Counted from the stretch's first letter, positions 22,267 to 54,045 are shown. The stretch: 64,000 bases of DNA from an uncultured delta proteobacterium (GCA_963745025.1 CAVUWD010000014.1:240339-304338); one strand, 5' to 3'. Program-made: numbers and translations. Notes: generated by a model not told the origin, from the letters alone.

Positions 22267-22282
22267 TGAGGGAATTTCCCTA
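22267..22282. promoter_or_regulatory. 16-bp palindromic box (FixJ-like)
   Basis: TGAGGGAATTTCCCTA preceded by CTA; intergenic between the divergent BON and GlsB genes. Confidence 0.7.
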
Positions 22283-22526
22283 CTGCTTAAGAAAGGCAGC
22301 CCCTGCTTCTACTCTGGTGTACGGCTCTCGCAACTTGATCGGCGCGGCGTGAGGCTTCCGCGCTTTCAAGTTGAGGATTTCTACGAACACAGCGAACGAC
22401 ATCGCGAAATAGGGCATCTCCGATCAGCGATCCTGTATGCTCGCCACGGCTGCGTCCTCCGACGTCTCAGTAATGCTCGGAACGGCACAAGGATTCGACC
22501 GGAGGAAGTCCCCTATCTGGGCGAGC

Positions 22527-22571
22527 AAGGGGTTTTCCCTTACTTGCGCGGCGCTCGCCGAGGCGTAACGT
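22527..22571 (+). promoter_or_regulatory. Box plus putative -35/-10 promoter
   Basis: AAGGGGTTTTCCCTTA, then CTTGCGCGGCGC..GGCGTAACGT; similar to 54006-54045. Confidence 0.6.
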
Positions 22572-22630
22572 GGTTCTTGGCAGTGCAGAATTGACTGGCG
22601 GTCCGAACGAACAAGCCGTTGGAGGTTCAC

Positions 22631-22918
22631 ATGACGCTCACACATCTGCTCATTCTTCTTTTGGTAGGAGCCGTGGTCGGACTGATCGCGGAACGGCTCG
22701 TCAACCGAGCACTCCCCTACGGATGGATCGGCGCCATCGCGGCCGGCCTGCTAGGCGCGTGGCTGATGACGGACCAGCTCCATATCATCATCGCTCCCAA
22801 GGTGTCGGTAATCGGGATTCCGCTGATCTCGGCGATCCTCGGCGCAATGATCGTGGTCTTCCTGTTCAGCTTGATCACCGGTGCCGGCCGATTCGGCTAC
22901 CGGCGTGCCCGCTGGTGA
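22631..22918 (+). CDS. GlsB/YeaQ/YmgE stress-response membrane protein
   Basis: LLVGAVVGLIAERL..GWIGAIAAGLLGAWL..AILGAMIV; GGAGG RBS. Confidence 0.85.
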   Translation: MTLTHLLILLLVGAVVGLIAERLVNRALPYGWIGAIAAGLLGAWLMTDQLHIIIAPKVSVIGIPLISAILGAMIVVFLFSLITGAGRFGYRRARW

Positions 22919-23101
22919 TCACGGTTCGGGATTCGCAAGCGCGGTGCGCTACTGAAGATATCCGGATATGCGCTCGCCGTCATTCATGATGAAAATATGA
23001 ACGGTACGTTGGATATCGACTGGAGTGATGCCGATCGCAGGTTACGGCGTTTCAAACGATCCGCAGCCTTTGATCAGCGTGTCTCTATTCTCGGCGCCGT
23101 G

Positions 23102-23728
23102 ATGCTGCGCTCATCGACCGCATTGCTCGCGCTCACGGCTGCCATCGCTTCGTCGGCGATCTCGATGTCGGTGCGGCCGGCGATCGCCGCCGACTCGCCT
23201 CCCGAGGTGGTTCGCAAGCTCACCGACGCAGTGATCGCCGTGCTCGAGCAGAAGGATCTGCCTGCCGCCGCGAGGGTCACGAAGATCCGCGACGTCGTTT
23301 ACGACTACGCCGATTTCCCGACCATCTCGCGATTGGTGCTGGCCCGCAACTGGAGGGGACTCGACGAAACCCAGCAGGAGCACTTTGTCGAGGAATTCAA
23401 GAAATACCTCGCGAGCAGTTACGGGAAGAACGTCGACACCTACAACAACGAGAAGGTGGAGATCGTAGGCGACCGCGACGAGGGGCGCGGCGACTGGACC
23501 GTGCAAACGAAAAACCTGCGCCCACAGGGTGGAGGCGACGTCCTGGTCGAGTACCGCTTGCGGCAGAGGAACGGGGAATGGAAAATCATTGACGTGCTCA
23601 TCGAGCGTGTAAGCCTGGTCTCCAACTACCGCTCGCAGTTCCAGGCCCTCATGGCCAACGGAGGCATCGACCACCTGCTCGAGCTCCTGCGCGAGAAAAA
23701 CGCGTCCGGCGAGGGGTTGAAGTCGTAG
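23102..23728 (+). CDS. mlaC: MlaC/Ttg2D phospholipid-binding protein
   Basis: DFPTISRLVLARNWR..VEYRL..WKIIDVLIERVSLVSNYRSQF. Confidence 0.9.
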   Translation: MLRSSTALLALTAAIASSAISMSVRPAIAADSPPEVVRKLTDAVIAVLEQKDLPAAARVTKIRDVVYDYADFPTISRLVLARNWRGLDETQQEHFVEEFKKYLASSYGKNVDTYNNEKVEIVGDRDEGRGDWTVQTKNLRPQGGGDVLVEYRLRQRNGEWKIIDVLIERVSLVSNYRSQFQALMANGGIDHLLELLREKNASGEGLKS

Positions 23729-23756
23729 CGTGCCGTCTCGATGCGACCCCCTTCGA

Positions 23757-23772
23757 TAGGGGATTTTGCTTA
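23757..23772. promoter_or_regulatory. 16-bp box (degenerate)
   Basis: TAGGGGATTTTGCTTA followed by TAG. Confidence 0.5.
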
Positions 23773-23914
23773 TAGCACCGTTTCGACTGGAGAAGCATTG
23801 TTGCCTGTCCGTGCAACCCGACCGATCGCCTTCAACGCAGGGACCGGGCCACGAAGAATCGAGCCTGGTCCCTGCTTATCCAAATGAGGAGGCGCGAATG
23901 GATGCCTTCGTTCC

Positions 23915-24344: not shown

Positions 24345-24983
24345 TTACTCTGAGTCGACGCCGTCTGCCTGATTGGCTCTGCAAAGCAGGTCCAGGCGCA
24401 CCAGCTCTGCGACGGACTCCACCTGCATCTTCTCCATGACGCGCCCGCGATGAATCTCCACCGTCTTGGGGCTGATGCCGAGGTCCGCCGCGATGATCTT
24501 GTTCGGCTTCCCCTCGATGACGAGGTCCATCACCTCTCGCTCCCTCGGCGTGAGGTACGTGAGCAGGGCGGCAAACTTCGCAGCCTCCATTCGCACTTGC
24601 CGGGTCCGGCGATCGAGGTCGATCGCCTGGCGAATCCGCTCCAGCAATGACTGATCGCTGAACGGCTTTTGTATGAAGTCGATCGCTCCCCCTTTGAGGG
24701 CGCGGACGGCCATCGGCACCCTGGCGTGCCCCGTCATGATGATGATCGGCGGCGGCACCCCGCGCCGCCTGAGCTCTTCCTGCAGATCGAGGCCGGATAA
24801 GCCTGGCATCCGCACGTCGAGAAGCAGGCAGCCAGGCTCCTCAGGGTTGTAGTCGGTCAAGAATTCTTGTGCCGTCGAGTAGCTCTTGAAGCGAAGCCCG
24901 GCGGATTCGAAGAGCCAGCCCAGGGATTCCCTGAGGTCAGCATCGTCGTCTACGACGAAAACAGTCGACTCTGCTTCCTTCAT
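24345..24983 (-). CDS. FixJ-family response regulator (REC + LuxR HTH)
   Basis: VFVVDDD, LLLDVRMPGLSG, TPREREVMDLVIEGKPNKIIAADLGISPKTVEIHR. Confidence 0.93.
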   Translation of the reverse strand: MKEAESTVFVVDDDADLRESLGWLFESAGLRFKSYSTAQEFLTDYNPEEPGCLLLDVRMPGLSGLDLQEELRRRGVPPPIIIMTGHARVPMAVRALKGGAIDFIQKPFSDQSLLERIRQAIDLDRRTRQVRMEAAKFAALLTYLTPREREVMDLVIEGKPNKIIAADLGISPKTVEIHRGRVMEKMQVESVAELVRLDLLCRANQADGVDSE

Positions 24984-26764
24984 GATCCCGGCCTCCGGCT
25001 CTTCGCTGCGCCGGGCGGACGTCTTCCGGCAAGGTCAGCCACCGCCGACACCAGTGCGCGCTGGCCGACGGGCTTTGTCAGGTGCAAACGATATCCGGCG
25101 GCGAGAGCCAGCTGCCGATCCATGGCGCCGGCGTATGCCGTCACCGCGATGGCCGGCACGGTTGCGGCGTCGCTCGAGCTGTGCGCTCGTATCTCACGCA
25201 TGAGCGCGTAGCCGTCGAGCTCGGGCATGCTGATGTCGCTGACCAGAACATCTTGCTGCTTCCCTCCTCGTCGAAGGACTTCGAGAGCCTCGCGAGTCGA
25301 GCCCGCCGTCGTGACCGTCGCCCCACATACCGTCAGCAGGGTCGCCATGGCCTCCAGTGCGTCCTCATCGTCGTCGACCACCAGGACACGAACCCCCCTC
25401 AAGTCCTCCATCTCGACCGCGCGGTCTCGAGCGTCCTGGAATTCACGCGAAGCGGGATCAGTGCTCGAAGGCAGGAGGGGCAACGTGATCGCAAATGTCG
25501 AGCCGCGGCCCTCTCCGGCGCTCTCGGCGGTAACTTTGCCACCGTGGAGCTCGACGAGGTTGCGAACGATGGCGAGTCCGAGCCCGAGCCCGCCGTACTT
25601 CCTCGTCGAAGACTTGTCGACCTGCCGGAAGCGCTCGAAGACCTCGGGAAGCGCTTCTGCAGAGATCCCAATGCCCGTATCGCGAACGGTGATTCGTGCC
25701 TCGGCGCCCACCCGCTCGAGCACGACGTCGATCGAGCCTCCTCTCGGGGTGAATTTGATCGCGTTCGAGAGAAGGTTCTCCATCACTTGCTGTAGGCGAG
25801 CCTCGTCGCCGTTTACGGGCGCGTCGATCTCGTGGGACGTGAACCGCAGGCGAGTTCCCTGTGCCTCCGCGGCGGCGCGAGCACTCTCTACCGCAGCGCC
25901 GACGACCGTGGCGAGAGGCACCCTTTCCAATTCGAGGGAGACCTTCCCGGCGTTTATGCGCGCGATGTCGATGAGGTCGTCGACCAGGCGCACCTCCAGA
26001 GCGATCTTTCGCTCGATCGTCTCGAGGGCGCGAGCAGACTTTTCTCGATCGAGGATGCCCCGACGCAACATCTGAGCGCACAGCAAAGCGGAGCTGAGCG
26101 GCGAGCGCAGCTCATGAGACAAAGTAGCCAGGAACTCGTCCTTGATGCGGTTCGCCTCCTGCGAAGCTCGGTAGAGTCGCGCGTGATCGACCGCGAGCCC
26201 TGCCCGCCGTGCGAGCTCCTCGGCAAGCGCCAGATCCACCGAGCTATAACTGTGCCCCGGCTTCGAGCGAGCGATGCTGATCGTCCCGAGGATCTGCCCG
26301 TGGACCGGAAGCGGAACACAAATGAAGGAGCGGAACTTCAAGCTACGGATCACGTCGGGGTCTACGTCCTCCGGCAGAGCGAGACATATCTGATCGGTGA
26401 CCTCTGGCAGCCATGTCGATTCACCGGTGGAGAGCACCCTGGAGTGGCTGGGCGCAGAATGGACGCTCAGCGGATGCTGTCGCGCGATTCTCCACACGAG
26501 CTCTTCTCGCTTCGGGTCGATGTCTGCCACCGCGACGCGACGGATCCTCTTTCCTTCCTCGGCCAGATCGACCACGCAAAAGTCCCCAAGCTGCGGTACG
26601 ACCAAGCGCGCCAGATTTCCGAGTGTCGTTTCGTAGTCGAGCGAGCTGCCGAGAACCCGGCTCGCCTCGGAGAGAAATGCGAGCCGAGAGCTCGCCGCTG
26701 CTGCTTCGCTACGCGCCGCTTCTTCGCGCTTCAGCAGCTCGTCGCGTTCCGTTTTGGGAGGCAT
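24980..26764 (-). CDS. Hybrid sensor histidine kinase (GAF-HisKA-HATPase-REC)
   Basis: FLATLSHELRSPL, NLLSNAIKFT, DTGIGI, GGLGLGLAI, VLVVDDD..SDISMP; ATGA overlap with the regulator. Confidence 0.95.
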   Translation of the reverse strand: MPPKTERDELLKREEAARSEAAAASSRLAFLSEASRVLGSSLDYETTLGNLARLVVPQLGDFCVVDLAEEGKRIRRVAVADIDPKREELVWRIARQHPLSVHSAPSHSRVLSTGESTWLPEVTDQICLALPEDVDPDVIRSLKFRSFICVPLPVHGQILGTISIARSKPGHSYSSVDLALAEELARRAGLAVDHARLYRASQEANRIKDEFLATLSHELRSPLSSALLCAQMLRRGILDREKSARALETIERKIALEVRLVDDLIDIARINAGKVSLELERVPLATVVGAAVESARAAAEAQGTRLRFTSHEIDAPVNGDEARLQQVMENLLSNAIKFTPRGGSIDVVLERVGAEARITVRDTGIGISAEALPEVFERFRQVDKSSTRKYGGLGLGLAIVRNLVELHGGKVTAESAGEGRGSTFAITLPLLPSSTDPASREFQDARDRAVEMEDLRGVRVLVVDDDEDALEAMATLLTVCGATVTTAGSTREALEVLRRGGKQQDVLVSDISMPELDGYALMREIRAHSSSDAATVPAIAVTAYAGAMDRQLALAAGYRLHLTKPVGQRALVSAVADLAGRRPPGAAKSRRPGS

Positions 26765-26830: not shown

Positions 26831-26846
26831 TAAGGGTTTTCCCCGA
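26831..26846. promoter_or_regulatory. 16-bp box upstream of the HK-RR pair
   Basis: TAAGGGTTTTCCCCGA preceded by TTA; 67 bp from the ATG at 26764. Confidence 0.75.
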
Positions 26847-26928: not shown

Positions 26929-28599
26929 TCACGGCCACGCGCGCGAGCTCTTCGAGAGCCTTCGCCCGGCGAGGTCTGCAACCACCGCGACGAGCGCTTC
27001 GGGATCGATCGGCTTTGCGAGGAGAGTCCGGAAGCCCGCCGCGACGGCCTGCTCGCGGTCCGCCTCCTTCGCGTACGAAGAGAGCGCGGCTGCGGGCGGC
27101 GCATCGCTGCCCTCGCGGGCAGCGATCTTGCGCATGAGGTCGTAGCCGCTTTCACCCGGCATGACGACGTCGCTGAGGAGCACGTCCGGCCTCGAGCGCT
27201 CGATCGCTGCGAGTGCGTCGGCAGCCGACGCCGCGGTCCTCACCTCGGCGCCGCAGCTCTCGAGGAGGTATCGCAGGGCGTCGCACATGTCCCGATCGTC
27301 GTCGACGATGAGAATACGAATCCCCGCGAGCGCGCCGGGTTCCGAGCGCTCGCCGGCCTCAGCCGCCTCCGGCCGCACGGCCGCCTCTTTGGTGAGCGGG
27401 AGCTCGACCGTAAAGGTCGTGCCCTCTTCTCCACCCGGGCTCTCCGCGCGGACGCGACCGCCGTGAAGCTCGACCAAATGCTTCACGATCGCCAGCCCGG
27501 TCCCCAAACCGCCGTAGCTACGGGTGCTCGAGCTCTCCGCCTGGCGAAAGGGCTCGAAGACGTGCGGCAGAAACTCGCGACTGATCCCCTTCCCGCTGTC
27601 GATCACCTGGATTCGGGCGTCTGCGCCTGCGCGCTCGAGATGAACCTCGATGTGGCCGCCGTTCGGCGTGAACTTGATCGCGTTGGCGAGGAGGGTAGCG
27701 ACCACCTGCTCGAGCCTGTCCGGATCGGCGGAGAGCAGCTTGACGGACCGATCGAAGGCGGCGTCGAGGCGGATCGACCTCCGCTCCGCCTGCGGCCGCA
27801 GTCCCTCGATCGCGGCCTTGATCAATCTCACCGGCTCGACGGCCCGTAGATCGAGGCGCAGCTCGGCGGTCGCGATGCACGAGAGGTCGAGCAAGTCGTC
27901 GATGAGCTTCGCCTGTGCGCGGACGTTGCGCTCGATCGCCTCGACTGCGCGGGCACGCTCGGCCTCGCCAGTGCCCTTCGAGCGCAGGACGTGAGCCCAG
28001 GTGAGCGTCGAGGAGAGCGGCGTTTTCAGCTCGTGCGACACCAGAGCGAGGAACTCGTCCTTCGCCCGGTTCGCCGTCTCGGCGGCACGCCTTGCCGACT
28101 CGAGCTGGCGGGTTCGCTCGGCCGCCTCGGCGCGAGCGAGCAGCATCGTCAAATAGGCGGCGAGCTTCGCCGCGACCAACGAGAGCGCACGGAGATGCCC
28201 CTCCCCGTACGCGCCTCTGGCGCGACGGACGAAGAAGACTCCGATCACCTCGTCGAGCCCGACGAGCGGAACGGCGAGGTGCGACCCCGACGGCCTCGTG
28301 GGGGCTTGCGGCGCGCGCGTGTGCTCCTCGACGAAGAGCCCGAAGAACCTCATGAGCGTCTCCGTGAGCTGCTCCCGCTCGTCCGGCGGCGCCGGCGGCG
28401 TCACGACGAGGCGCGGCTCGCGGCCGGGCTCGGCCTCGAGCAGTGCGCACTGGTCGTACGGCAGGAGCTGCCGGAGGAGCTCGAGGACGCGGAGCACGCG
28501 CTCCGCCGATCCCTCCGCGGATTCGAAGACCAGCGCGATGTCGTAGAGCGTCTGGCTGAAGCGCTCCCGCCTCCGAGGCTCGCGCCGTCGCGTCCTCAC
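26929..28599 (-). CDS. Hybrid histidine kinase/response regulator
   Basis: FLALVSHELKTPL, LLANAIKFT, DSGKGI, GGLGTGLAI, C-terminal REC; GTG start overlaps the kaiC-like stop. Confidence 0.92.
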   Translation of the reverse strand: MRTRRREPRRRERFSQTLYDIALVFESAEGSAERVLRVLELLRQLLPYDQCALLEAEPGREPRLVVTPPAPPDEREQLTETLMRFFGLFVEEHTRAPQAPTRPSGSHLAVPLVGLDEVIGVFFVRRARGAYGEGHLRALSLVAAKLAAYLTMLLARAEAAERTRQLESARRAAETANRAKDEFLALVSHELKTPLSSTLTWAHVLRSKGTGEAERARAVEAIERNVRAQAKLIDDLLDLSCIATAELRLDLRAVEPVRLIKAAIEGLRPQAERRSIRLDAAFDRSVKLLSADPDRLEQVVATLLANAIKFTPNGGHIEVHLERAGADARIQVIDSGKGISREFLPHVFEPFRQAESSSTRSYGGLGTGLAIVKHLVELHGGRVRAESPGGEEGTTFTVELPLTKEAAVRPEAAEAGERSEPGALAGIRILIVDDDRDMCDALRYLLESCGAEVRTAASAADALAAIERSRPDVLLSDVVMPGESGYDLMRKIAAREGSDAPPAAALSSYAKEADREQAVAAGFRTLLAKPIDPEALVAVVADLAGRRLSKSSRAWP

Positions 28600-30069
28600 G
28601 GCTGTTCCTCTTCGGACCCAGTGGGAAGCCCCGTCAGTACCCCGCGAATGCTGGGGAAGCGCGGTCCGACCGCGATCCCGTCCGCTTCGAGGGTCATCCT
28701 GCGCACGTCGGTCGCGTGCCGCACGCCGCGCGCCTTCAGCACCGAGATGCCGCGCTCGAGGCGCCCTTCCACCTCCACGTACTTGAGCTGGATCACGTTG
28801 TCGGCGGCGAACGAGATCCCGTGGCCGGAGAGCTGGGCAGAGCCCAGCAGCTCGGCGATCTCCATGTTCATCTGGAGCGTGACGCCCCGGGCGCGGAAGT
28901 GTTTGGTGATGGCGTAGACGAGCTCCTTGAAACGCCGCTCGGAGGGAACGCCGAGCGCCATGCTCGTCAGGCTGTCGAGCACGGCGCGTCGCGCCCCGAG
29001 CTGCTCCACTTGCTGCCGCGCCCGATCGAGGAAGGTGTCGGTCGAGAGCTCGACGGGCGAGACGTAGCTCAAGGTGAGGAGCCCGCGCTCTCGAGCGGCG
29101 AGGAGATCCCACCCGAAGCCCTGGGCGATCCCGCGAAGCTGGTCCGGCGTCTCCTCCAGCGTGAAGTGGATTCCCGCCTCGCCGCGCCGCGCTCCCTCGA
29201 GGAGGAACTGCAGGCCGAGCGAGGGTCTTGCCCGTCCCCGTCCCGCCCTGGACGACGGTCGCGCTGGCGCGCGGCAGCCCGCCGCCGAGCATCGTCGTCG
29301 AGCCCGCCGATCCCGGTCGCGACGCGCTCGGCGGTCGAGACCTCCTCGATGGCGACGGCATCCGGGCTGCGCACCCGCGGGAAGAACGCGAGCCCGTCGG
29401 AGCCGATCTCGAAGAAGTGGCGGCCGGTGACGTAGCCCGCGCCGCGCAGCTTCAGGACCTCGACCTCGCGGACCGCGGTCAGCTCGTGACGCCGATTGGT
29501 GAAGCCGGATGATGCCGTCGGCGATCGCGAACTCGGCGCTCGGTCGAGATCTCCTCCTCCGTGTACTCGCCGACGAGGAGGCTCGTCGCGCCCCAGCTCG
29601 CCATGTGGACGGCGAGATCGTAGACGAACGTCCGCATCGCCGGAGCGTCGCCGAGGATGTCCCGGAGCGCCTTGAAGCTGTCGATGACGACGATCGCCGG
29701 CTCCTCGCGCTCCACGCGGCTCGCGATCTCGCTGAGCGTCGCCTCCGCGCCCTTGCGCCCGGATCACCGAGCCGAGGTCGGCGAAGACGACCTCGCTTCA
29801 TCGATCAGGCGCTCGTCGAAGAAGGAGAACTGCTGCATGTAGTCTGATGAGCTTCAGCGACGGCTCGGAGAGCGTCGTGAAGTAGAGGCCCTTCTTGCCC
29901 TGCCGCGCCAGGTGGAAGAGCATCTGGAGCGCGAAGATGGTCTTGCCCGCGCCAGGCTCTCCGGCGATCACGTTGACGGAGCGGAGCGGGAGCCCGCCGC
30001 CGAGGATGCGATCGAAGGCGGCGCTCCCCGTCGAGAGGCGCTCCGAGGCGTGGACGGCTCGACGCTCAT
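28596..30069 (-). CDS. Two-domain KaiC-like (RAD55/KaiC) ATPase, several apparent frameshifts
   Basis: STGSAAFDRILGGG..GEPGAGKT; IVVIDSFK; VLKLRG; second Walker A QGGTGTGKT; VLDSLT; GISFAADNVI; VLKARG. Spread over at least 5 frame segments. Confidence 0.9.
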
Positions 30070-30473
30070 GGCTGTTCCTCCTGCGCGAGAGATGACTCCC
30101 CGCTCTCGAAGCTCGGGGATTTGCTCGAGACGGCGGACGACGACGGACCCGGTCAACTCCACGAGCAGCGGCCAGAGCTCGGCGACCAGCTCGCGCAGCG
30201 CGAGCGGCGTGCGCCCCGGCCCCGTCCGCCCACGCAGATGGGACCATGTAACGGTATTCGAGTTTCTCGCGCACGATGGCGAGCTGCAGCGAGCTCCGCG
30301 CAACGGGGCGCCGCACGCTGCGCCGCGCGACGCACGAGCGTAGCCGTGGCGGCGGTGCCGAGGACGTCGGCAAGCGCATCCCAGATGAGCGTGAAAAGGG
30401 CGGCCACAGACGGCTCGGCGCCGGCAGCGGCACTGGTCGCTCGTTCGCTCCCGAGAACGCGTCTAGAACTCAT
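30066..30473 (-). CDS. Small helical protein upstream of the KaiC-like ATPase (frameshifted)
   Basis: MSSRRVLG..LFTLIWDALADVLGTAATATLVRRAA / LAIVREKLEYRY / LRELVAELWPLLVELTGSVVVRRLEQIPEL. Confidence 0.75.
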
Positions 30474-30562
30474 GTTTGTGCCCGGCGATCCCCACACTCT
30501 ATATCTATCTATATCTATCCAGACCTCGGTTTCACTTCACCCGATGACGGCGCGAGGTTATA

Positions 30563-30578
30563 TAGGGAGTTTCCCTGA
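30563..30578. promoter_or_regulatory. 16-bp box upstream of the KaiC operon
   Basis: TAGGGAGTTTCCCTGA; a weaker copy, TACGGGACTGTCCTAA, at 30651-30666. Confidence 0.75.
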
Positions 30579-30732
30579 TGACCTCGCGCCTTTGTGCAGG
30601 AAGCTGCTGGCGAGCAGTTCCGACTGACGTTGGCGCCGATTTTTCCTCTATACGGGACTGTCCTAATAGCGCTCGCGCACCACCTCGGCATTGCTGCGAC
30701 ATTGCTGATGCTCATCAAGAAGGTCACTTCCG

Positions 30733-31500: not shown

Positions 31501-31516
31501 TGAGGGAATCCCCTGA
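31501..31516. promoter_or_regulatory. 16-bp box
   Basis: TGAGGGAATCCCCTGA preceded by CTA. Confidence 0.7.
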
Positions 31517-36975: not shown

Positions 36976-36991
36976 TAAGAGAAATCCCCTA
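36976..36991. promoter_or_regulatory. 16-bp box at the NRPS truncation point
   Basis: TAAGAGAAATCCCCTA preceded by CTA. Confidence 0.6.
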
Positions 36992-39721: not shown

Positions 39722-39737
39722 CTACGATTCCTTTCCG

Positions 39738-40115: not shown

Positions 40116-40178
40116 GGTCGTTGACGCGTATCCGCCCAGTCTCTCCAGTAGTATCGCCCAAGACTGTACGAACGGCGA

Positions 40179-40194
40179 TCAGGGAAAGCCCTTA
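40179..40194. promoter_or_regulatory. 16-bp box upstream of the YqjE/ElaB/YtxH/AI-2E operon
   Basis: TCAGGGAAAGCCCTTA, 64 bp from the ATG. Confidence 0.75.
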
Positions 40195-40261
40195 TCATTG
40201 GTGATTGGCAAGAGACGCAAATTCCGCTCGATCAACCACCTGCTGCGCACGCCGGCGATCG

Positions 40262-41071
40262 CTACTTCTTAACGCGCTTGGGCTTCAGGTAGACGGCCGC
40301 GCCGCGCTCCAGCACGCGGAAGGCGAACGACTCGGTCAGATAGAGGTAGACTTTGTCTTGGTCGTGCCCCGCGTATCCGATGGACAGATCCTGTCCGACG
40401 CTGAGCTGATAGTCGCCGCCGCGATGTGACAGCAGCACTGCGCCGTCGACCTTTGGTGCCAACACCATCGGCCCGTCAAGGAAGTGTTCGACGCGCTCGC
40501 GGATCGGATAGCCGTCCTGCGCCGCCTGCGCCAAACCCGCGTAGCAGTTCGGTCCAAGCGCCAAGGCATAGGGACCATTGATACCCGCGCGCCGCAGCGT
40601 TTCGACGGCGTCCACCACGACGGACGGATAGTCTGCGTAATCGTCCGGGATGGTAAGTGCCGGGTGCGCAGCGGTGGCGATGATGCCCTCGATGCCTCCG
40701 GCCTTGAAACCGTTGAAGATGGCGTTGTCTTCGGCGTGCGCCGTCTTCTCCGCAGCACTGACCACTGCCGGAAGATCCAGCACGGCGCCGCGCGATGCGT
40801 TGTCGAGCTCCATGATTGGCAGCTCGAACGGCACCCGCACCTCGATCAATGGTGCGACCTCGCGCACGCCCCAGGGCACGCCGAGGCCGCCGTCGGTCCG
40901 CAGGGTCAGATGACCCGTGTTGATCGCGGCGTACTGCCACCCGTGCGGGCCGTCGAAGTCAACCAGCTTCCGTCCCGCCAGGTTGAGCTGCAGGACCCGC
41001 TTGGCTTCGTCGTCGATTTGCTTCCAGGCTTCGGGGGTAATCGGTGCGTGATTGCGCTTCAATAGATCCAT
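40262..41071 (-). CDS. Family 1 encapsulin shell protein (Linocin M18/HK97 fold)
   Basis: MDLLKRNHAPITPEAWKQIDDEAKRVL..AGRKLVDFDGPHGW..AEDNAIFNG..RGGDYQLSVGQDLSIGY..LYLTESFAF; 269 aa. Confidence 0.97.
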   Translation of the reverse strand: MDLLKRNHAPITPEAWKQIDDEAKRVLQLNLAGRKLVDFDGPHGWQYAAINTGHLTLRTDGGLGVPWGVREVAPLIEVRVPFELPIMELDNASRGAVLDLPAVVSAAEKTAHAEDNAIFNGFKAGGIEGIIATAAHPALTIPDDYADYPSVVVDAVETLRRAGINGPYALALGPNCYAGLAQAAQDGYPIRERVEHFLDGPMVLAPKVDGAVLLSHRGGDYQLSVGQDLSIGYAGHDQDKVYLYLTESFAFRVLERGAAVYLKPKRVKK

Positions 41072-41074
41072 GGC

Positions 41075-41437
41075 TCACTTCCCTTTCATGCTGCCAATGC
41101 CGAGCGTCGCGGCGGCCGCAGAAGTCGGGCCGTCCGTTTCAGCACCCTTCTCGATGCCGGTGATCGGTTGCTCGGTGAACAGGTACTTCCGCATCATCTC
41201 GTTGAAGTGGTCATTGTGACGGCGAATCCATTCCATGACCATCGTCGCGTGCTCGATCTCTTCGTTCTTGTTGTGTAGCAGCACGTCCTTCAACTGCGGA
41301 TCGGAACACGCGTCGGCGCGTTGCTGATACCAGTCGATTGCCTCGAGCTCCTCCATCAGGCTGACGATCGCACGGTGCATATTGACCGTGTCCGCCGTCA
41401 GGAGATCGAGCGATTCATGATAAGCGTCACTGGCCAT
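41075..41437 (-). CDS. Encapsulated ferritin-like protein (Flp/EncFtn) with a cargo-loading peptide
   Basis: HRAIVSLMEELEAIDWYQQRADA..HNKNEEIEHA ferroxidase motif; C-terminal LGIGSMK targeting peptide. Confidence 0.96.
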   Translation of the reverse strand: MASDAYHESLDLLTADTVNMHRAIVSLMEELEAIDWYQQRADACSDPQLKDVLLHNKNEEIEHATMVMEWIRRHNDHFNEMMRKYLFTEQPITGIEKGAETDGPTSAAAATLGIGSMKGK

Positions 41438-41524
41438 GTGGCTTTCCCTCTCTGTCCGTCTAGATGCTTGCCGAGGCACCGGGACCGGTGCATCGAAACT
41501 ATGAATCCGAACCGTTTAGACCGC

Positions 41525-42139
41525 CTACAGCGCGAGGTCCAGTGTGCGCACCTTCTGAAAGCGCTGCGCCACGTCCTCCCAATTGACCACCTTCCAGAAT
41601 GCTCCAACCCAGTCGCCCTTCACGTTTTGATACTGCAGGTAGTAGGCATGTTCCCACATGTCGAGAACCAGCAGCGGCACCGTGCCATTGCCGATGTTGC
41701 CTTGGTGGTCGTAGACCTGCTCCACGACCAAGCGCTGGCCGACGGGCTCCCACGCCATGGCCCCCCAGCCCGAGCCCTGCACGTTGAGCGCCGCTTCCGT
41801 CAGCTGACTCTTGAGGGCATCGAACGAGCCGAACGACTCTTGGATGGCCGTGGTCAGCTCACCCGCTGGTTGCCCGCCGCCGTGCGGGCTCATGTTGCGC
41901 CAGAAGAGTGAGTGCAGCACGTGGCCGGAAACATGAAAGGCGAGGTTCTTTTGCAGCTGGTTGATCGCCTCGAAGTTCCGTTGCTCGCGTGCCGCAGCGA
42001 GCTTCTCGAGGGTGGCGTTCGCGCCGGCGACGTACGCGGCGTGGTGTTTACCGTGATGCAGCTCGAGCAGCCGCGCGGAGTAGTGTGGCTCCAGCGCCGA
42101 GTAGTTGTATGGCAGTTCAGGCAGTTTATACGTCCTCAT
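41525..42139 (-). CDS. sod: Fe/Mn superoxide dismutase
   Basis: [42 protein letters not shown]. Confidence 0.97.
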
Positions 42140-42246
42140 GGTCTCTCTCCTTTGGACGAGTTGCTTCGATGAAATCCGCCTTGGCATTGGTGCCCGTTCA
42201 TCTCAGTCGATCCGCGTAGATGCTGGCGGTTGATGTACGTCGCGGG

Positions 42247-42389
42247 GAGCGTAGCCGTGACGGCGGTGCCGAGGACGTCGGCAAGCGCGTCTAGACCCCG
42301 TGTGTGCCCGGCGATTCCCACATTCCATCCAGACTAGGTTTCAACTACACCCGATGACGGTGGAATGATTATAAGGGGTTTCCCCGAGA
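42247..42389 (-). repeat. Degenerate copy of the KaiC-operon promoter and gene stub, including box TAAGGGGTTTCCCCGA (42372-42387)
   Basis: Aligns to 30336-30580 with an ~80-bp internal deletion; start ATG changed to ACG. Confidence 0.85.
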
Positions 42390-42490
42390 GGACTCGCACT
42401 TGCGGTGCTCGTCCAATAATCGGCGGTTTATGGCAACTCGGCCGCCGACCTGGCGCAGCTCTGCGAACGCTGGCTGCACCCCGACTGCGA

Positions 42491-42854
42491 TCAGTCGATC
42501 CGCGGTCCATGCCGGCGGTTGACATACGCCGCGATGACCGAGCCGACGACGATGGAGAGCACCGCGACCAGCAGGGCGTGAAGATAGGCGACGATGCCGA
42601 GGACAAACCCCTCGATGAGCCACGTGCCTGCGATGCTCACCCCGAGCAGCAATACCACGGTGGCGGCCCACGGCTGGCCGCGCCACACGCCGGCCGCGGC
42701 CGCGAGCGCGCACATCACTTGCAAGACGAAGCCTATCAGCAGCAACGGCACGGGCGGGCCGAACCAGCATCGCGGGCACGTAGCCCGCGATGTACACGCC
42801 GGATCCCGCCAGCGCGACGGCAATCAGGAGCAACGCAGTGGATCGATCATCCAT
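42491..42854 (-). CDS. 4-TM membrane protein (one apparent frameshift)
   Basis: MDDRSTALLLIAVALAG / PPVPLLLIGFVLQ..GVWRGQPWA..IEGFVLGIVAYL. Confidence 0.75.
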
Positions 42855-47121: not shown

Positions 47122-48422
47122 TTACCGAAGGGACTCGAAGTTGAGGATTGACGACAGAATGTCGCCTAAGATGGAATAGTTTCCGTTAGAATAGCTGCCG
47201 TATTGATGGCGGCTGTCGTAGCCATCTTCATAGCCGCGACGGAAGCCCTCGCGGAAGTAGTAGTTGTAGTCGTCTCGGTCTACATAAAAGCCATTATAAC
47301 CGTAGTTAGCATCCCGATAGGCATAAGAGTCGCGGTAGCTGGAAGCCCAGCGATCCTCCCGGTCTGCCTGTCCAGCACGAAAACCCTCTTCGTAGCCGTA
47401 GTTCACGGCTCGCCGAAGCAACTCTGCGCCGTATTGATTCGTCTGGTAGTACCTACCGCTGCGCAAGTACCGATAGCTTGGGGGCGTGTAGAAGTACGGA
47501 TCACTACTGTAGTTGTAGTTACGTTCATTCTCGATACGTATTTGCTGCTGACGTAGGCGCTCTAAGTACTGTTGCTGAAAACGGTACTGCGCCATACGCT
47601 TCTCTTGCTGTAGCTGCGCCGACTGCTGTTGTAGCACGCGCTGCTGCTCCTCTAGATGTTGACGGTACTGCACGAGACTTTGTTGTTGCTGATTAATAAG
47701 CTGTTGCTGCTGCTGTTGTGACAGGCGTTGCTGCTGCAGGCGCTGTTGGTCCTGCTGCTGCGCCTTTTGCTGCTGTTCCTGTTGCTGGCGCTGCTGCTCT
47801 TGCTGCTGCTGCACCTTTTGCTGCTGTTGCTGTTGCTGCTGCTGCTCCTGCTGCTGCACCTTTTGCTGCTGTTGCTGTTGCTGCCTGCTGCTGCTGCTGC
47901 GCCTTTTGCTGCTGTTCCTGTTGCTGGCGCTGCTGCTCTTGCTGCTGCTGCGCCTTTTGCTGCTGTTCCTGTTGCTGGCGCTGCTGCTCTTGCTGCTGCT
48001 GCACCTTTTGCTGCTGTTGCTGTTGCTCCTGCTGCTGCTGCGCCTTTGCTGCTGTTCCTGTTGCTGGCGCTGCTGCTCCTGCTGCTGCTGCCCTTTTGCT
48101 GCTGTTGCTGCTGCTCCTGCTGCTGCTGCGCCTGCTGCTGTTCCTGTTGCTGGCGCTGCTGCTCCTGCTGCTGCTGCACCTTTTGCTGCTGCTGCTCCTG
48201 CTGTTGCTGCGCCTTTTGCTGCTGTTCCTGTTGCTGGCGCTGCTGCTCTTGCTGCTGCTGCACCTTTTTTTGCTGCTTTTCTTTTTCCTGCTGCTTTTGA
48301 TCTTCCTGCTGCTGTTGGTCTTGCTGCGGTTGTTGCTGCGCGTTGGTCGGTACACTTATTCCCACTAAAGACACCGCGGTGATTGCGACCACCGCCACTA
48401 CGTTCAACATGGCAATTTTCAT
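47122..48422 (-). CDS. Secreted glutamine-rich protein with a Tyr/Arg/Gly-rich C-terminal domain (frameshifts in the repeat)
   Basis: MKIAMLNVVAVVAITAVSLVGIS signal peptide; Q-rich tract; C-terminal YGAELLRRAVNYGYEEGFRAG..YFREGFRRGYEDGY. Confidence 0.85.
47700..48345 (-). repeat. CAG/CAA-rich tandem repeat (~51-bp unit, QQQQEQQRQQQEQQQK[A/V])
   Basis: Recurrent CAGCAGCAGCAAGAGCAGCAGCGCCAGCAACAGGAACAGCAGCAAAAGG[C/T]G. Confidence 0.95.
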
Positions 48423-48615: not shown

Positions 48616-48825
48616 TCAGGGAATTCCCTTAGCCGCGGATCCTAGCGCAGACCGGAACGACGTTGTTGATGGTCGGGGGTTTCCCTACTTCGCCGACTCG
48701 ACAGCCGCAGACCAGGCGAGAGGAAGCTTTGAACGATAGCTGGAGCTGCGGCGCTGTGGGCCCGTCCGACATCCCGGTTACCACGTCGCGTACGAAACTT
48801 CTGCTCCCATAGGGGACTTCCCTCA
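48616..48825. promoter_or_regulatory. Three 16-bp boxes in a divergent intergenic region
   Basis: TCAGGGAATTCCCTTA (48616), TCGGGGGTTTCCCTAC (48673), TAGGGGACTTCCCTCA (48810). Confidence 0.75.
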
Positions 48826-48921
48826 TAGCGCTCTCGGCTATTTCGAGCGTTAGTGGCTGCTGAGGCGTATCTGCGCAATCGCAGCGCCCGAGAGAGACAA
48901 TCGGACACAGGTGACACTTCA

Positions 48922-49161
48922 ATGAAGACCACGACAATCGCCGGCATCCTTCTCATCCTGCTTGGGGCAGTCGCGCTCATGTACCAGGGAATCACCTACA
49001 CGAAGCGCGAGAAGCTACTGGACCTCGGCCCCATCCACGCAACGACGGAGACGCAAAAGACGATTCCGCTGCCGCCGGTGGTAGGTGGCTTGGCCCTCGT
49101 CGGGGGCATCGTTATCCTCGTGCTCGGCGCAAGGCGTCCCGAGGGGAAGGGAATACTATGA
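48922..49161 (+). CDS. DUF3185-like small membrane protein
   Basis: IAGILLILLGAVALMYQGITYTKREKLLDLGPIHAT..TIPLPPVVGGLALVGG. Confidence 0.85.
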   Translation: MKTTTIAGILLILLGAVALMYQGITYTKREKLLDLGPIHATTETQKTIPLPPVVGGLALVGGIVILVLGARRPEGKGIL

Positions 49162-49740: not shown

Positions 49741-50271
49741 TTAGCCACCGTACGCCGCTAGCTCGATGGGCTCTGTCTTTCGAAGGATTTCGCTGGCTTT
49801 GGAAGCTTCACCATTTGCACCGTGAACTACCAGGAGAAACTTGTTCGCCCTGAGTGCGCTTTCGTAGTTGATCACACTGCTCTTGGGGATGCCCATGATG
49901 TGAAGAGCCGATCCTAAAGCAGTTAGGCCATTGTGGACCGTCGCTCCCTCCAAGGCGCCCACGATGGACTCAACCAGCGGGCCGCCCACCAGGATCGGCC
50001 CTACCCCTGGCATCCAGAAGAAGGCCTCCGCTTTGAGGAGCCTCCAGATTCCGCCCCAGAAGGCTCCGAGCTTCCCCCAGTATTTCAAACGGTCGCCCGT
50101 CTTGTAATAGCCGACCACATGGTCTTCGGTACGGTAGTCTTTTCCAACGATGGAGAGCAGCTTCATGTCGATTCCAGCGGTCTGAAGCTCCTCGACGGCC
50201 GCTTCGGCATCGGTGTGCGTATTGTAGATGGCCACCGCTGAGTTTTGACTCTTATTCTTCTCGTTCAACAT
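49741..50271 (-). CDS. General stress protein (17M/YflT/DUF1269-like)
   Basis: VAIYNTHTDAEAAVEELQTAGIDMKLLSIVGKDY..GIPKSSVINYESALRANKFLLVVHG. Confidence 0.85.
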   Translation of the reverse strand: MLNEKNKSQNSAVAIYNTHTDAEAAVEELQTAGIDMKLLSIVGKDYRTEDHVVGYYKTGDRLKYWGKLGAFWGGIWRLLKAEAFFWMPGVGPILVGGPLVESIVGALEGATVHNGLTALGSALHIMGIPKSSVINYESALRANKFLLVVHGANGEASKASEILRKTEPIELAAYGG

Positions 50272-50300: not shown

Positions 50301-50364
50301 GTAAGATTTTCCCTCATGGAGCACACTCGGGGATAACCCCTATTCTGGTCCGGGTTTCTCCTTA
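50301..50364. promoter_or_regulatory. Three tandem 16-bp boxes
   Basis: GTAAGATTTTCCCTCA (50301), TCGGGGATAACCCCTA (50327), TCCGGGTTTCTCCTTA (50349). Confidence 0.75.
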
Positions 50365-50432
50365 TAGCGTCCGCGTACCCCTCCGTGCGTTACTCACGTG
50401 TTGGTGACGCTCGGCTTCACGGAGGTGACCGA

Positions 50433-50813
50433 ATGTTCAGAGACCAAAGGCGACGAGCAGACCCCGATCAGGCCACGAGGGATTACTCTACGATCGCCGA
50501 TGACGGCATCGTTTTTGCCGCGAACCTCCCGGCCCACGGGACACGCGCGTGCCTCCCGGAGATATCTCTCGTCGCGGCAATATTCGAGGACGCTGTCCGA
50601 TGCCTTCAGCGAGTTAGCCGCGGCGTGACGTACCGCCAGTCCTCGGAGGCTTTCGAATGGATCGCATCCGAGCGGCGCGACTGGCCGTTTGCTTTCGTCA
50701 ATATCTGCGATTTGCTCGGAATTGATGCGAAGGCGGTGCGGAAGCAACTTCGAATTAGCGACGAAGGTAGCGGTAATGGTCTCAAGCGCTCGAGTGGTAC
50801 ATCACCGACGTGA
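50433..50813 (+). CDS. Conserved hypothetical protein
   Basis: PEISLVAAIFEDAVRCL..EAFEWIASERRDWPFAFVNICDLLGID; GGAGG RBS. Confidence 0.7.
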   Translation: MFRDQRRRADPDQATRDYSTIADDGIVFAANLPAHGTRACLPEISLVAAIFEDAVRCLQRVSRGVTYRQSSEAFEWIASERRDWPFAFVNICDLLGIDAKAVRKQLRISDEGSGNGLKRSSGTSPT

Positions 50814-50967
50814 TCCTGCGCGCTGTCAGCGGCATCGAGTTTGTTCGCGAGCTGGCGGAACTCGGCCTCCTTTCTTGGAGGCGTCATCGCCGTCGAGAGA
50901 CATACAATTGACGAGAAGGCGTCGAAGAAATCAGCGCGCCTCGCAGTCCTCTGGAGCGCACTGAAGC

Positions 50968-53517
50968 TCAAAGCAGCGCGTGCCGGCGATAGAACCAGGA
51001 CTTAACGGCCTGCACCAGCAGGAGGTAGGTCACGGCGAGAAACGCGATCGCACCCAACAGCGACACCGGCAGCGGGATAAACCCCAGCAGGCTCCCGAGC
51101 GGCGTGTACGGCAGCACAGCGGCGATCGCCACGACGGCTAACACGCCTGATCAGCAACGGCCGGCTGGGACGGCTCTTGAGCGGGTTGCCTGCCGTCCGG
51201 ATCACAAACACCACCAGCGTCTGTGTCGCCAGGGATTCCACGAACCATCCGGTGTGGAATAGCGGCGCGTTCGTGGAAGCGTGGAACACCCAGAGCAGTA
51301 CCCCGAAAGTGAGGAAATCGTAGATCGAGCTGATGGGACCGATGATCATCATGAACTGGCGAATGAACGCGATCTGCCATCGCTTGGGCCGGTGCAGCAG
51401 GGCGGGATCGACATTGTCGCTGGGGATGCTGATCTGCGAGATGTCATACAGAAAGTTGTTCAGCAGGATCTGCGTCGGCAGCATAGGCAGGAATGGCAGG
51501 AAGAGCGACGCCGCGGCCATGCTGAACATATTGCCGAAGTTCGAGCTCGTGCCCATGATGATGTACTTCATGATGTTGGCGAAGCAGCGCCGCCCCTCGA
51601 TGACCCCGTCGTTCAAGACCGCCAGGTCCTTCTCCAGCAGGATGATCTTCGCCGCGTCCTTCGCCACCTCCACGCCGTTCACGACCGAAATGCCGACATC
51701 CGCGGTGTGCAGCGACGGAGCATCGTTGATGCCGTCACCCATGTACCCGACGACGTGCCCACGCGCCTTCAGAGCGAGGATGACCCGGTTCTTCTGTTCA
51801 GGAGACACGCGGGCGAAGATGGCGCCATTCTCCGCCTGGTAGGCCAGAGCGGCATCGTCCATCGTGTCGACCTGGTTCCCGGTGACAATGCGGTCTGCCG
51901 CCAGCCCGACGTCGCGCGCGATCTTCTGTGTCACGTACTGGTTGTCGCCGGTCATGATGACCACGGAGACGCCATTCTGTTTCAGCGCCTCGAGAACGGA
52001 AGGAATCCCTTCCTTGGGCGGGTCGAGGAAGGCCGCGAACCCGACCAGCGTCATATCCCGCTCGGCCGCCGGCGTGTAGACATCCTGCTTGTCCACCTTC
52101 AGCACCGCGACCCCAAGCGTGCGGTAACCGTCGGCGCTCAGCTTCTTGAAGGTCTCCTCCGCCTGCGCGCGCCGGCTTTCGTCGAACGGCTGGGGCGACC
52201 CATCGATGCTCACGGTCTGGCAGATGGCCAAAATACGCTCTCTGCCTCGCCCTTGGTGATGAGGAGGTGCTCGTCACCATGCCGCACCACCACCGAAAGG
52301 CGCTTGCGGTTGAAGTCGAAGGGGATCTCGTCCACCTTCGCGTACTCCGCGATCGTAGGGTGCTCGTGCTTCAGGATCGGCATCGTCCAGCGGGCTCTTG
52401 ATGCCCGCTTCAAAGTAGCTGTTCAGGTAGATGAGCCGCAGAACGTTCTCATCGTCCTTCCCCTGGACATCCACGTGCCGGTCAAGCACGATCTCCCCTT
52501 CGGTCAGTGTGCCCGTCTTGTCGCTGCAGAGGATCGTCACGCTGCCGAAATCCTCGATGGCCGCAAGTTGCTTGACGAGAACCTTCTTCCTGGTCATCCG
52601 CCTCGCGCCCTGGGCCAGGGTGACGGTGATGATCATCGGCATCATCTCCGGCGTCATCCCGACCGCCAGCGCGACGGAGAAGAGGAACGACTCCAGCAGC
52701 GGGCGGTGGAAGTACGATGTTGACCAGCAGAACGAAAAGCACGAGCAGCATGATCACCCGCGTGATCATCAGCCCGAAGTGGCGTATGCCACGGCCGAAC
52801 TCGGTCTCCGGCGGCCGCGCAGCCAGGCGCTGGGCGATCTCGCCGAAGGCGGTGTCTCTGCCTGTGCGGACGATGACCGCGGTGCCAATCCCTGTCTGAA
52901 CCGCAGTGCCCAGGAAGACGCTGTTGCTCGCGTCGGCAATGCCGTGCTTCCCCTCCGGAAGATCATGCGCTGCCTTCTCGACGGGCAGAGACTCCCCGGT
53001 GAGCGCCGACTCGCGCACGTGCAGGTCCTTTACCTCCAGCAGACGGGCGTCCGCCGGCACGAGGTCTCCGGCATTGAGCCGGACGATGTCCCCCGGGACC
53101 AGTTCTGCTATCGGCAGTTCCTGTTCTCGCCCGTCACGCATAACGGCGGCCGTTGTGGCGACCTGCTTCCGAATCTCCTCCACCGCATGTCGAGCCTGGA
53201 ACTCCATGAAGAAGTTCAGCAGCACGCTGAGCAGGACGATCGCGATGATGATCAGTCCGCCGACCGGGTCACCCAGCGCGAGGGATATGGCGCTGGCCAC
53301 GAGAAGGATGATGACGAGGGGATTGGCAAAGAAGCGGAGGAAGGCGAGCAAGCCCTGCGAAGCGCGACTCCCGCACCAGGCTGTTCGGGCCATAGAGACG
53401 CAAGCGCCGTTTCGCCTCATCGGAGGTCAGCCCGGCCGGCGTTGCCTGCAGCAGTTCGAGCAGGTCCTGCAGCGGCCTGTCCCAAAACCCGTGTAGAGAA
53501 GTGTCCGGTTCTGTCAC
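50968..53517 (-). CDS. mgtA: Mg2+-translocating P-type ATPase (multiple apparent frameshifts)
   Basis: ESALTGES, PEMMP, CSDKTGTLT, FDFNRKR, MTGDN, GDGINDAP, SSNFGNMFS, FHTGWFVES over about 6 frame segments. Confidence 0.9.
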
Positions 53518-53699
53518 GGCGTCTCGGCCTCCCCTGTCGGCCAGCGCTCGCCGTCCCGCACGCACCGTCTCAGTACTGGCCTGCAGCCCCTGACACCAGA
53601 TCGCAGGCAACGTCGGTGCTAGCCCTCCGGTAGATACCGGCATGTTACCACAACCACCGTCGACTATGCTCAAACGAGGCTGGCTCCGTCGGCCGCAGT

Positions 53700-53907
53700 C
53701 GGTGTGTGGCGCGGCCGGCCGTGGGCCGCCGGCGCGGTGGTGCTGCTGGCGGTGAGCATCGCAGCCACGGCGCTCATCGAGGGGTTCGCCCTCGGCATCG
53801 TCGCCTATCTGCGCGCCCTGCTGGTCGCGGTGCTCTCCATCGTCGTCGGCTTGGTCGTCGCGGCGTATGTCAACCAGCAGCGCGGACCGGTGTCGCGGAT
53901 CGACTGA
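53700..53907 (+). pseudogene. 3' half duplicate of the membrane protein gene at 42491-42854 (inverted)
   Basis: GVWRGRPWAAGAVVLLAVSIAATALIEGFALGIVAYLRALLVAVLSIVVG..RID*; shares the GCGGATCGACTGATCGC end. Confidence 0.8.
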
Positions 53908-54005
53908 TCGCGGTTCCAGCAGTCCCGGCTCCAGCCCAGCTGCGTGGATATTCACACGGCTCAACGGCCTGCCAGCTCACCCCCTTGGCGGCCGAATCCC
54001 GCAAC

Positions 54006-54045
54006 TAGGGGCTTGTCCGTACTTGCGCGGCGCAAGGCGTAGCGT
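54006..54045 (+). promoter_or_regulatory. Degenerate box plus a promoter resembling 22527-22571
   Basis: TAGGGGCTTGTCCGTA CTTGCGCGGCGC AAGGCGTAGCGT. Confidence 0.55.

Follow-up and report, generated by a model that had tools for sequence, protein, structure and literature searches.

The window analyzed here, a stretch of 64,000 nucleotides, is the last 64 kb of contig C14 (CAVUWD010000014.1:240339-304338) in the genome of an uncultured bacterium (GCA_963745025.1; 5.65 Mb in 20 contigs, 66% G+C, 92.65% complete), of which it makes up 1.1%. It holds a gene island across which a palindromic box recurs outside the genes, and within this island lies an operon for a hybrid histidine kinase and a response regulator of the FixJ family, the latter encoded at 24345 and referred to below as regulator 24345. 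The closest public relatives of this regulator (82 to 95% identity) come from soil metagenome-assembled genomes (MAGs) labeled "uncultured delta proteobacterium" or "Candidatus Binatota bacterium," and we therefore assign the organism to the uncultured Binatota/Binatia, a group for which we know of no cultured member and no described regulatory network. Contigs are given C-numbers, and compared genomes, loci, and families are given G-, L-, and f-numbers, with G000 denoting the genome of the window. "Intergenic" refers throughout to the output of a crude codon-usage gene caller, which called 84.5% of the genome coding.

The boxes and the genes around them are collected in Table 1. The genes behind the boxes appear, from their family names, to be mostly of a stress or dormancy type. 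In addition to the families listed, Pfam scans of the window show VIT1 and small DUF202-like membrane proteins.

Table 1. Boxes, associated genes, and duplicated cassettes. Positions given without a contig are those of the window; scores are on the other-family matrix (O) or the window-trained matrix (W) described in the text. ORF, open reading frame; HTH, helix-turn-helix.
Feature	Position	Context	Score
Box, GGG-N5-CCC variant	22267..22282	Upstream of small + strand ORFs 22349/22619	15.4 (O)
Weak auxiliary box	22500..22515	27 bp from 22527 box	<12 (O)
Box	22527..22542	~84 bp upstream of ORF 22619-22918	17.7 (O)
Box in 72-bp promoter cassette	23757..23772	Cassette also precedes di-iron monooxygenase gene on C1	18.8 (O)
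Response regulator, receiver + GerE/LuxR HTH, proposed binder	24345..24983 (-)	FixJ-type recognition helix	
Hybrid histidine kinase, GAF-HisKA-HATPase-REC	24980..26764 (-)	4-bp overlap with regulator gene, one operon	
Promoter-proximal box of kinase-regulator operon	26831..26846	Center 74 bp upstream of kinase start	24.9 (O)
kaiC (two ORFs) + second GAF hybrid kinase	26929..30433 (-)	Proposed target operon of box 30563	
Box holding GGAGTTTCCC	30563..30578	137 bp upstream of kaiC N-terminal ORF	20.1 (O)
Extra weak box, absent from the preliminary list	30651..30666		14.2 (W)
Box, target uncertain	31501..31516	Small ORFs, both strands	16.4 (O)
Box, target uncertain	36976..36991	ORF 36423-36662 (-) 321 bp away	21.7 (O)
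Holin-X/YqjE-like, ORF 39039-39596 (no Pfam match), YtxH, and AI-2E transporter genes	40115 down to 37202 (-)		
Box	40179..40194	71 bp upstream of holin-X/YqjE-like gene	22.0 (O)
sod-encFtn-encapsulin	42187 down to 40262 (-)	Assigned by Pfam	
Box	42372..42387	192 bp upstream of sod-encFtn-encapsulin	23.1 (O)
Box, top score	48616..48631	170 bp upstream of poly-Q gene, then BON gene	27.0 (O)
Weak box	48673..48688		13.9 (W)
Box	48810..48825	Upstream of small DUF202-like membrane protein gene 48853-49161	18.3 (O)
Three boxes: 50301 weak, 50327 strong, 50349 weak	50301..50364	Between divergent YflT-family gene 49741-50271 and ORF 50385-50813	50327: 25.5 (O)
Degenerate box in 42-bp duplicate of 22527 cassette	54006..54021		
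Duplicated cassette pair	42247-42328 and 30336-30502	sod and kaiC promoters	
Duplicated cassette pair	23743-23815 and C1:846-916		
Duplicated cassette pair	22528-22569 and 54007-54048		
Intergenic boxes outside the island	C15 22673, 23278, 54977; C16 35767, 777355; C5 235981; C11 66065		(O)

The box has the consensus TAT-N-R-GGG-N4-CCC-Y-N-ATA, a dyad of 16 to 20 bp, which in its extended form reads c-TAT-N-R-GGG-(A/G)WW(T/C)-CCC-Y-N-ATA-g. A preliminary description made from the sequence alone had listed 17 sites, and a box is present at all 17, strong at 12 and weak or degenerate at 5. The strict pattern T.[AG]GGG....CCC[CT].A has 19 matches in the genome, 7 of them within the window. There are 11 exact copies of TNRGGGNWWNCCCYNA, of which 10 are intergenic and 6 lie in the window. 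When up to one mismatch to TNRGGGNWWNCCCYNA was allowed, the window contained 12 matches compared to an expectation of 0.76 ± 0.87, none of 100 dinucleotide shuffles reached 12, and all 12 real matches fell on listed sites. A symmetrized 24-bp matrix made from the listed sites (the window-trained matrix) returned 23 genome matches at a score of at least 17, including 21 intergenic matches and 12 in the window. Since this matrix is circular, a second 24-bp matrix (the other-family matrix) was built from 14 sites in other families, 5 from family f5, where they lie between a regulator homologue and the next gene, and 9 from genome G154. At a score of at least 16, the other-family matrix returned 20 genome matches, 18 intergenic (binomial P = 4e-13) and 11 in the window (P = 6e-17), and its reversed form, used as a control, returned none; it weighs against these figures that the matrix is not fully independent, its sites having first been found with the window-derived pattern or matrix. 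Twelve of the 17 listed sites score at least 15.4 on it and five score below 12 (22500, 48673, 50301, 50349, and 54006), the first four of which flank strong boxes and the last of which lies in a duplicated cassette.

The presence of the boxes, their strong enrichment, and their nearly exclusive placement between genes are thus shown by these counts. The preliminary description had placed them outside intact genes, where 18 of the 20 matches do fall, and had held that the idea would fail if the motif were equally frequent in coding or non-island DNA, which these counts contradict. It had also reported no full copy at 1 to 21 kb or 55 to 64 kb, and no match of at least 16 on the other-family matrix lies there; at a score of at least 13, the window-trained matrix finds only 10387 and 18800 in these two regions, both within coding regions.

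We compared the box with published FixJ sites. Excerpts from Tsoy et al. (2016; PMC4999443) give the Sinorhizobium meliloti FixJ site at fixK as TAAGTAATTTCCCTTA, list GTAGTTTCCC and GTAMGTAG as site classes from systematic evolution of ligands by exponential enrichment, and describe 18-bp imperfect palindromes in fixK promoters recognized by phylogenetic footprinting. The earlier statement that an S. meliloti FixJ site contains GTAGTTTCCC agrees with these excerpts, and GGAGTTTCCC, to which it had been compared, is present at 30566. On two core matrices built from the boxes described here, the published 16-mer TAAGTAATTTCCCTTA scores 15.9 and 18.4, values equaled or exceeded at just 18 and 16 of 5.6 million genome positions, respectively. 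Compared position by position, 13 of the 17 listed boxes match TAAGTAATTTCCCTTA at 10 to 12 of 16 positions and the other 4 at 8 or 9. Furthermore, among 80 homologue loci (L001 to L080), those in which a box immediately follows the regulator gene are canonical fix loci, in which a PAS-PAS-HisKA kinase, the regulator, the box, and a single-receiver (FixT-like) protein are followed by a CRP-family (FixK-like) gene or by ccoN/ccoO. Such loci were found in Parvibaculum, Rhodobiaceae, Dongiaceae, and one Binatia MAG, and in fixJ loci of Nitrobacteraceae and Xanthobacteraceae the sequence TTAGGGG-N4-CCCTTAA lies about 500 to 600 bp downstream of fixJ. Given both the match to the published site and its occurrence in canonical fix loci, we conclude that the box is the FixJ box in a more symmetric form.

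Regulator 24345 had been assigned to the FixJ family beforehand, and its domains agree with this: matches to Pfam Response_reg (1.4e-28) and GerE (6.8e-21) give it the NarL/FixJ (LuxR-type) architecture. Searched at full length against solved structures, it is most similar to StyR (1yio, 9e-52), with Bradyrhizobium japonicum FixJ (5xso) at 3e-48, while its C-terminal 80 residues have the S. meliloti FixJ DNA-binding domain (1x3u, E = 5e-15) as their best solved match. The recognition helices of the two proteins are near-identical (SPKTVEIHRGRVM in regulator 24345 and SPRTVEVHRANVM in S. meliloti FixJ). The NCBIfam FixJ equivalog model NF006900 is the best family match yet stays below its cutoff (235 bits versus 255). 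The adjoining kinase, which we take to be cytoplasmic, is not FixL: it has the order GAF-HisKA-HATPase-REC and no PAS domain, and the kinases of the canonical loci L049, L055, and L060 are of the PAS-PAS kind. No fixK/fixT/nifA-type target was found among the box-adjacent genes scanned in the window and on C1, C5, C15, and C16, a scan that did not extend to a genome-wide search for fixK. In a quick IQ-TREE tree of 88 rows, the regulator and four family relatives (supported at 100 in the Shimodaira-Hasegawa-like approximate likelihood ratio test) fall outside an alphaproteobacterial half of 41 rows; this split has a support of 94 (unstarred) on the same test in a tree that is rooted at its midpoint only and whose careful search is unfinished. 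Judged from its sequence, then, the protein is a FixJ paralogue with a predicted FixJ-type DNA specificity and not FixJ proper. The Candidatus Binatia MAG with a canonical fixL-fixJ-fixT-fixK locus (L055) is a separate case in the same tree, its FixJ grouping with that of Dongiaceae (Alphaproteobacteria), a placement that suggests either horizontal transfer or a binning error.

From these sequences we infer that the regulator binds the boxes, that it activates, and that a stress theme unites its targets. In the mechanism we propose, the GAF domain of the kinase would sense some signal and bring about phosphorylation of the regulator; since no Hpt domain was found in the genome at its 92.65% completeness, the hybrid kinase probably passes phosphate directly to the regulator. 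A dimer of phosphorylated regulator would then bind boxes centered about 43 to 45 bp upstream of the transcription start and would activate its own operon together with about 20 promoters, the window contributing 12 strong boxes. Candidate target genes are sod-encFtn-encapsulin, poly-Q/BON, YflT, the holin-X/YtxH/AI-2E row, kaiC with the second kinase, and small membrane proteins. We consider it likely that the boxes are FixJ-type operators and that their binder is the phosphorylated form of regulator 24345, a FixJ paralogue paired with a GAF hybrid kinase.

Promoter geometry bears on the sign of this control. A -10-like hexamer of the TAT(A/G)C type starts 33 nt from the box center in four of five aligned kinase promoters, which would put the center near -44, a class-II-like position. 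This agrees with the S. meliloti FixJ footprints at -69 to -44 and -57 to -31 given in the excerpts cited above (PMC4999443). With the center placed there, the YflT and kinase promoters would have leaders of about 20 to 30 nt with GGAG-type ribosome sites. Two observations count against activation. First, the -10 signal is weak over 31 oriented sites genome-wide, with nAnnnT at offset 32 in 6 of 31 and TAnnnT in 3 of 31, and a count just as high (7 of 31) appears at the unrelated offset 20; spacing over all sites was dropped as proof of activation on account of this weak peak and the unrelated one. Second, the C15 54977 box and several G154 boxes lie only 42 to 49 bp upstream of predicted start codons, which would call for leaderless transcripts or else fit repression. 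We therefore lean only slightly toward the regulator activating its targets, with repression or dual control retained as a competing reading. In that reading, regulator 24345 would bind the boxes but mainly repress or act in both directions, the unphosphorylated protein occluding promoters until stress releases them. The box arms do hold TATAAT-like hexamers, such as CCCTTATAAT at the sod promoter, and unphosphorylated FixJ of Rhodopseudomonas palustris represses nifHDK, according to an excerpt of PMC13327599. The kinase promoter, however, has its conserved -10-like hexamer on the downstream side of the box, at class-II distance, with a Shine-Dalgarno sequence and ATG following, and upstream of the boxes no -35 element can be seen. 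Repression is also disfavored by the activator role of FixJ at fixK and of its relatives StyR and TodT. Taken together, we regard a mainly repressing or dual regulator as unlikely, if the strongest of the alternatives.

We asked whether the association of box and regulator holds in related genomes. Boxes are conserved at orthologous promoters in relatives: the motif was found upstream of orthologues in G165, G183, and G201 despite strongly different gene order. The neighborhood of the regulator gene in G165 and G183 shares with the window only the kinase-regulator pair itself, orf22619, YflT, and orf50385. Both G165 and G183 have boxes upstream of YflT and of the kinase, and G183 has further boxes in the divergent YflT/orf50385 intergenic region, upstream of its orf22619 orthologue, and at its orthologue of C16 orf100. 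In G201, a single 19.8-kb contig carries 7 boxes, those of L002 included, with one box 150 bp upstream of sod-encFtn-encapsulin and two upstream of a BON gene. Moreover, an extra groES-groEL-like pair (101 and 539 to 559 residues) directly follows the regulator on G165:C1 and G183:C7, with a box in its promoter, while the two groES-groEL pairs of the genome studied here have none. When the kinase-regulator promoters of five genomes were aligned, the proximal box was in register in four and degenerate in G201, and the register extends to a downstream block, TTGATTcGGGGTAT(A/G)C, the Shine-Dalgarno sequence, and ATG; three relatives have a second, distal box in this promoter. The conservation of the proximal box in four of five genomes makes autoregulation, which the preliminary description had proposed, plausible.

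The association extends beyond the family. In family f5, whose regulator is 59 to 63% identical to that of the window, five of five loci (L081 to L085, from G164, G143, G241, G225, and G233) show the order nonhybrid kinase, regulator homologue, box, and sigma-70-family gene, with the box located after the regulator's stop codon and ahead of the sigma-70-family gene. The sigma-70-family proteins are 416 to 511 residues long and contain regions 2, 3, and 4 in all five loci and region 1.2 in four. With 1 to 3 exact pattern matches in each f5 genome, this arrangement suggests a two-component-to-sigma cascade. A box scoring at least 14.5 lies within 2.6 kb of the regulator gene in 10 of the 80 homologue loci, and the recognition helix encoded in all 10 is of the T-[VI]-E-[IV]-H-R form; no such box accompanies any homologue of this set that was read as having a TVK-type or EVYR-type helix.

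A second alternative is that another factor, one of the other GerE-type proteins or a member of an unrelated family, binds the boxes and that the kinase-regulator operon is merely a target. Adjacency and a box in the operon's own promoter do not prove the identity of the binder, four further GerE proteins are encoded in the genome, and several findings from relatives weigh on the same side or against the stress regulon as such. Many homologues with the T-[VI]-E-[IV]-H-R helix among L001 to L080 have no adjacent box. Of eight loci with 55 to 62% homologues fetched from other families, those of G213 and G221 have no box in 12 kb; at the locus of G154, also one of the eight, boxes lie 1.1 to 1.5 kb away. 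The genes that boxes precede in G154 are not stress genes but include housekeeping-looking ones (gltX, an SDR gene, and a TetR gene) as well as genes for a HAMP kinase and a TPR protein. Around encapsulin in G165 and G156, 12 to 14 kb of sequence contained no box scoring at least 13.5. Across 101 genomes of the class, including the unpublished G232, which supports none of the claims made here, box counts do not track the presence of homologues cleanly, in a tally whose exact 16-mer pattern was too insensitive, and whose control counts were too close, for a clean correlation. In this tally, G175 (family f85) has 7 exact pattern matches of the GGGAATACCC/GGGTATTCCC kind and no regulator homologue at E ≤ 1e-40, matches that may belong to a different factor or a repeat. 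Finally, some G183 matches have identical flanks on several contigs and look like copies of repeated elements.

Against a different binder stand the match of the box to the published FixJ site, its travel with homologues of regulator 24345 across families and phyla, and the absence of any other DNA-binding domain among 40 window ORFs scanned against Pfam. Only one of the five GerE-type proteins in the genome, regulator 24345, adjoins boxes, and it alone has a FixJ-type recognition helix; the only other FixJ-like regulator (on C19, 46% identity) has the helix TIKRHR and no box nearby. We infer that regulator 24345 is the predicted binder, and we rate a different binder as improbable, slightly more so than repression.

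The idea that the boxes are simply parts of duplicated DNA, as cassettes or small mobile repeats in a rearranging island with no common regulator, finds its footing in the longer flanks shared by the three cassette pairs (Table 1) and in the repeated G183 flanks, but a pure repeat explanation is rejected as highly improbable because most sites share only a 20- to 24-bp core, and orthologous promoters keep their boxes despite different gene order, with a core that matches an experimentally defined protein-binding site. The flanks common to the three pairs do indicate that part of the regulon grew by copying of box-plus-promoter modules. As a separate observation, the G183 loci L106, L108, and L109, as well as L103 and L105, show an identical 24-bp box context across contigs, one of them at a contig end, beside a 79-residue ORF, and a repeated or mobile element may carry these recurring boxes.

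The preliminary description had regulator 24345 controlling the whole island. Boxes do cluster there, but the predicted regulon extends beyond the island, and some island genes, at 32 to 36 kb, have no box. Nine matches of at least 16 on the other-family matrix lie outside the island, on C15, C16, C5, C11, C7, and C8; seven are intergenic (Table 1), and those on C7 and C8 are within coding regions. Downstream of the C15, C16, and C5 boxes are genes for a DUF6799 protein, a linalool-dehydratase-like protein, and several small proteins without a family. With the window-trained matrix, matches at C15 16974, C15 17819, and C1 859 precede an ORF without a family, a gene for a YpfJ-type zinc peptidase, and one for a di-iron monooxygenase subunit, respectively. 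The last of these (C1:859-2472 region) belongs to a cassette with 81% identity to 23743-23815, and 94 bp downstream of the box begins a gene for a methane/phenol/alkene hydroxylase alpha subunit; this cassette would link a hydrocarbon-oxidation gene on C1 to the same regulon. A sigma-factor link of the f5 kind was rejected for this genome: of its three sigma-70-family genes homologous to the f5 one (identity no higher than 37%), none has a box in its vicinity.

Other features of the window deserve mention. kaiC is split into ORFs 29798-30433 and 28596-29801 (-), which overlap by 4 bp, with the start of the first KaiC domain's P-loop in the upstream ORF; the split reflects either a frameshift that made the gene a pseudogene or a mistake in the assembly. 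A P-type cation ATPase is likewise in pieces on the - strand (E1-E2/N-terminal part at 52482-53420, HAD plus C-terminal part at 51002-52231), from either a broken gene or a sequencing frameshift. The poly-Q gene (47637-48344), whose product has no Pfam family, contains in its interior a long repeat array with periods of 9 and 15 nt, for which 22 overlapping copies were reported. Paralogous pairs of small genes with 83 to 93% DNA identity, some inverted (32461-32682/44158-44379, 42503-42702/53690-53889, and 44843-44931/45424-45512), point to recent duplication inside the island. Twenty sequencing runs, 6 of them RNA libraries, matched at less than one-third of the sampled words each, and contigs from four RNA runs compared with 39600-42500 covered parts of coding regions only (88 to 99% likeness), with no transcript start or end readable.

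The box and the regulator family were known before; the new elements are the sensor, the phylum, how large the direct regulon is and which genes it holds, and the contrast with a sister family. A classic oxygen-response switch seems to have been reused as a stress switch in this Binatota bacterium. As a tentative proposal, which we would not yet call probable, a FixJ paralogue with a GAF hybrid kinase may serve one Binatota family as the master switch of general stress and dormancy, acting at some 20 FixJ-box promoters that include those of encapsulated ferritin, superoxide dismutase, BON, YflT, and kaiC (and a groESL copy in relatives), while in the sister family it would have essentially one target, a dedicated sigma-70-family factor. 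If true, the two families would preserve a stress regulon that was rewired, with direct two-component control on one side and a two-component-to-sigma cascade on the other, and the sister family's box at a sigma-factor gene would be a natural case of such rewiring. Our search of the literature on Binatota found no description of stress regulation, and no report was found that connects FixJ with encapsulins or with a stress regulon under a GAF kinase. The box, the candidate regulator and sensor, and about 20 predicted target promoters offer a concrete, testable regulon for Binatota, one that would extend the use of FixJ-box specificity to a phylum other than Proteobacteria and to functions other than the control of oxygen responses and nitrogen fixation. 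The box could also help to annotate stress genes without known function in such soil bacteria, such as those for the poly-Q protein, the small DUF202-like proteins, and DUF6799.

The preliminary description had given this regulator the role that SigB, RpoS, or EcfG plays in other taxa. The gene content is indeed similar (YflT, YtxH, BON/OsmY-like, superoxide dismutase, and ferritin-like proteins), but the comparison holds as an analogy only, and control here would be exerted by a two-component activator directly at each promoter. The DosS/DosT-DosR system of Mycobacterium also combines GAF kinases, a LuxR-type regulator, a GGG...CCC palindrome, autoregulation, and a stress/dormancy regulon. 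Its box spacing is wider, its kinases use a different phospho-acceptor domain type, and none of the 44 solved sequences that match the regulator at E ≤ 1e-10 is a DosR/DevR entry; the likeness is distant, one of analogy and not of membership. StyS/StyR and TodS/TodT are nearer, StyR being the best full-length solved match and the operator having the same 6-N4-6 dyad layout. Excerpts of PMC5874301 give the StyR/TodT operator consensus as ATAAAC-N4-GTTTAT and the StyR recognition residues as K175, V176, and H179. These residues are E, I, and G in regulator 24345 and the half-site is RGGG instead of AAAC, altered residues that fit a different half-site within the shared layout and that, with the half-site, place the protein outside the StyR/TodT subfamily; sensor and regulon differ as well. 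Closest is FixL/FixJ of S. meliloti and other Alphaproteobacteria, which has in common with the system described here a receiver joined to a LuxR-type HTH domain, a box like TAAGTAATTTCCCTTA, and an overlap of the box with the -35 region. Where those bacteria couple a heme-PAS FixL to fixK and nifA, however, the Binatota system would couple a GAF hybrid kinase to about 20 predicted direct target promoters of stress-type genes, through boxes that in the window are more symmetric than the S. meliloti site.

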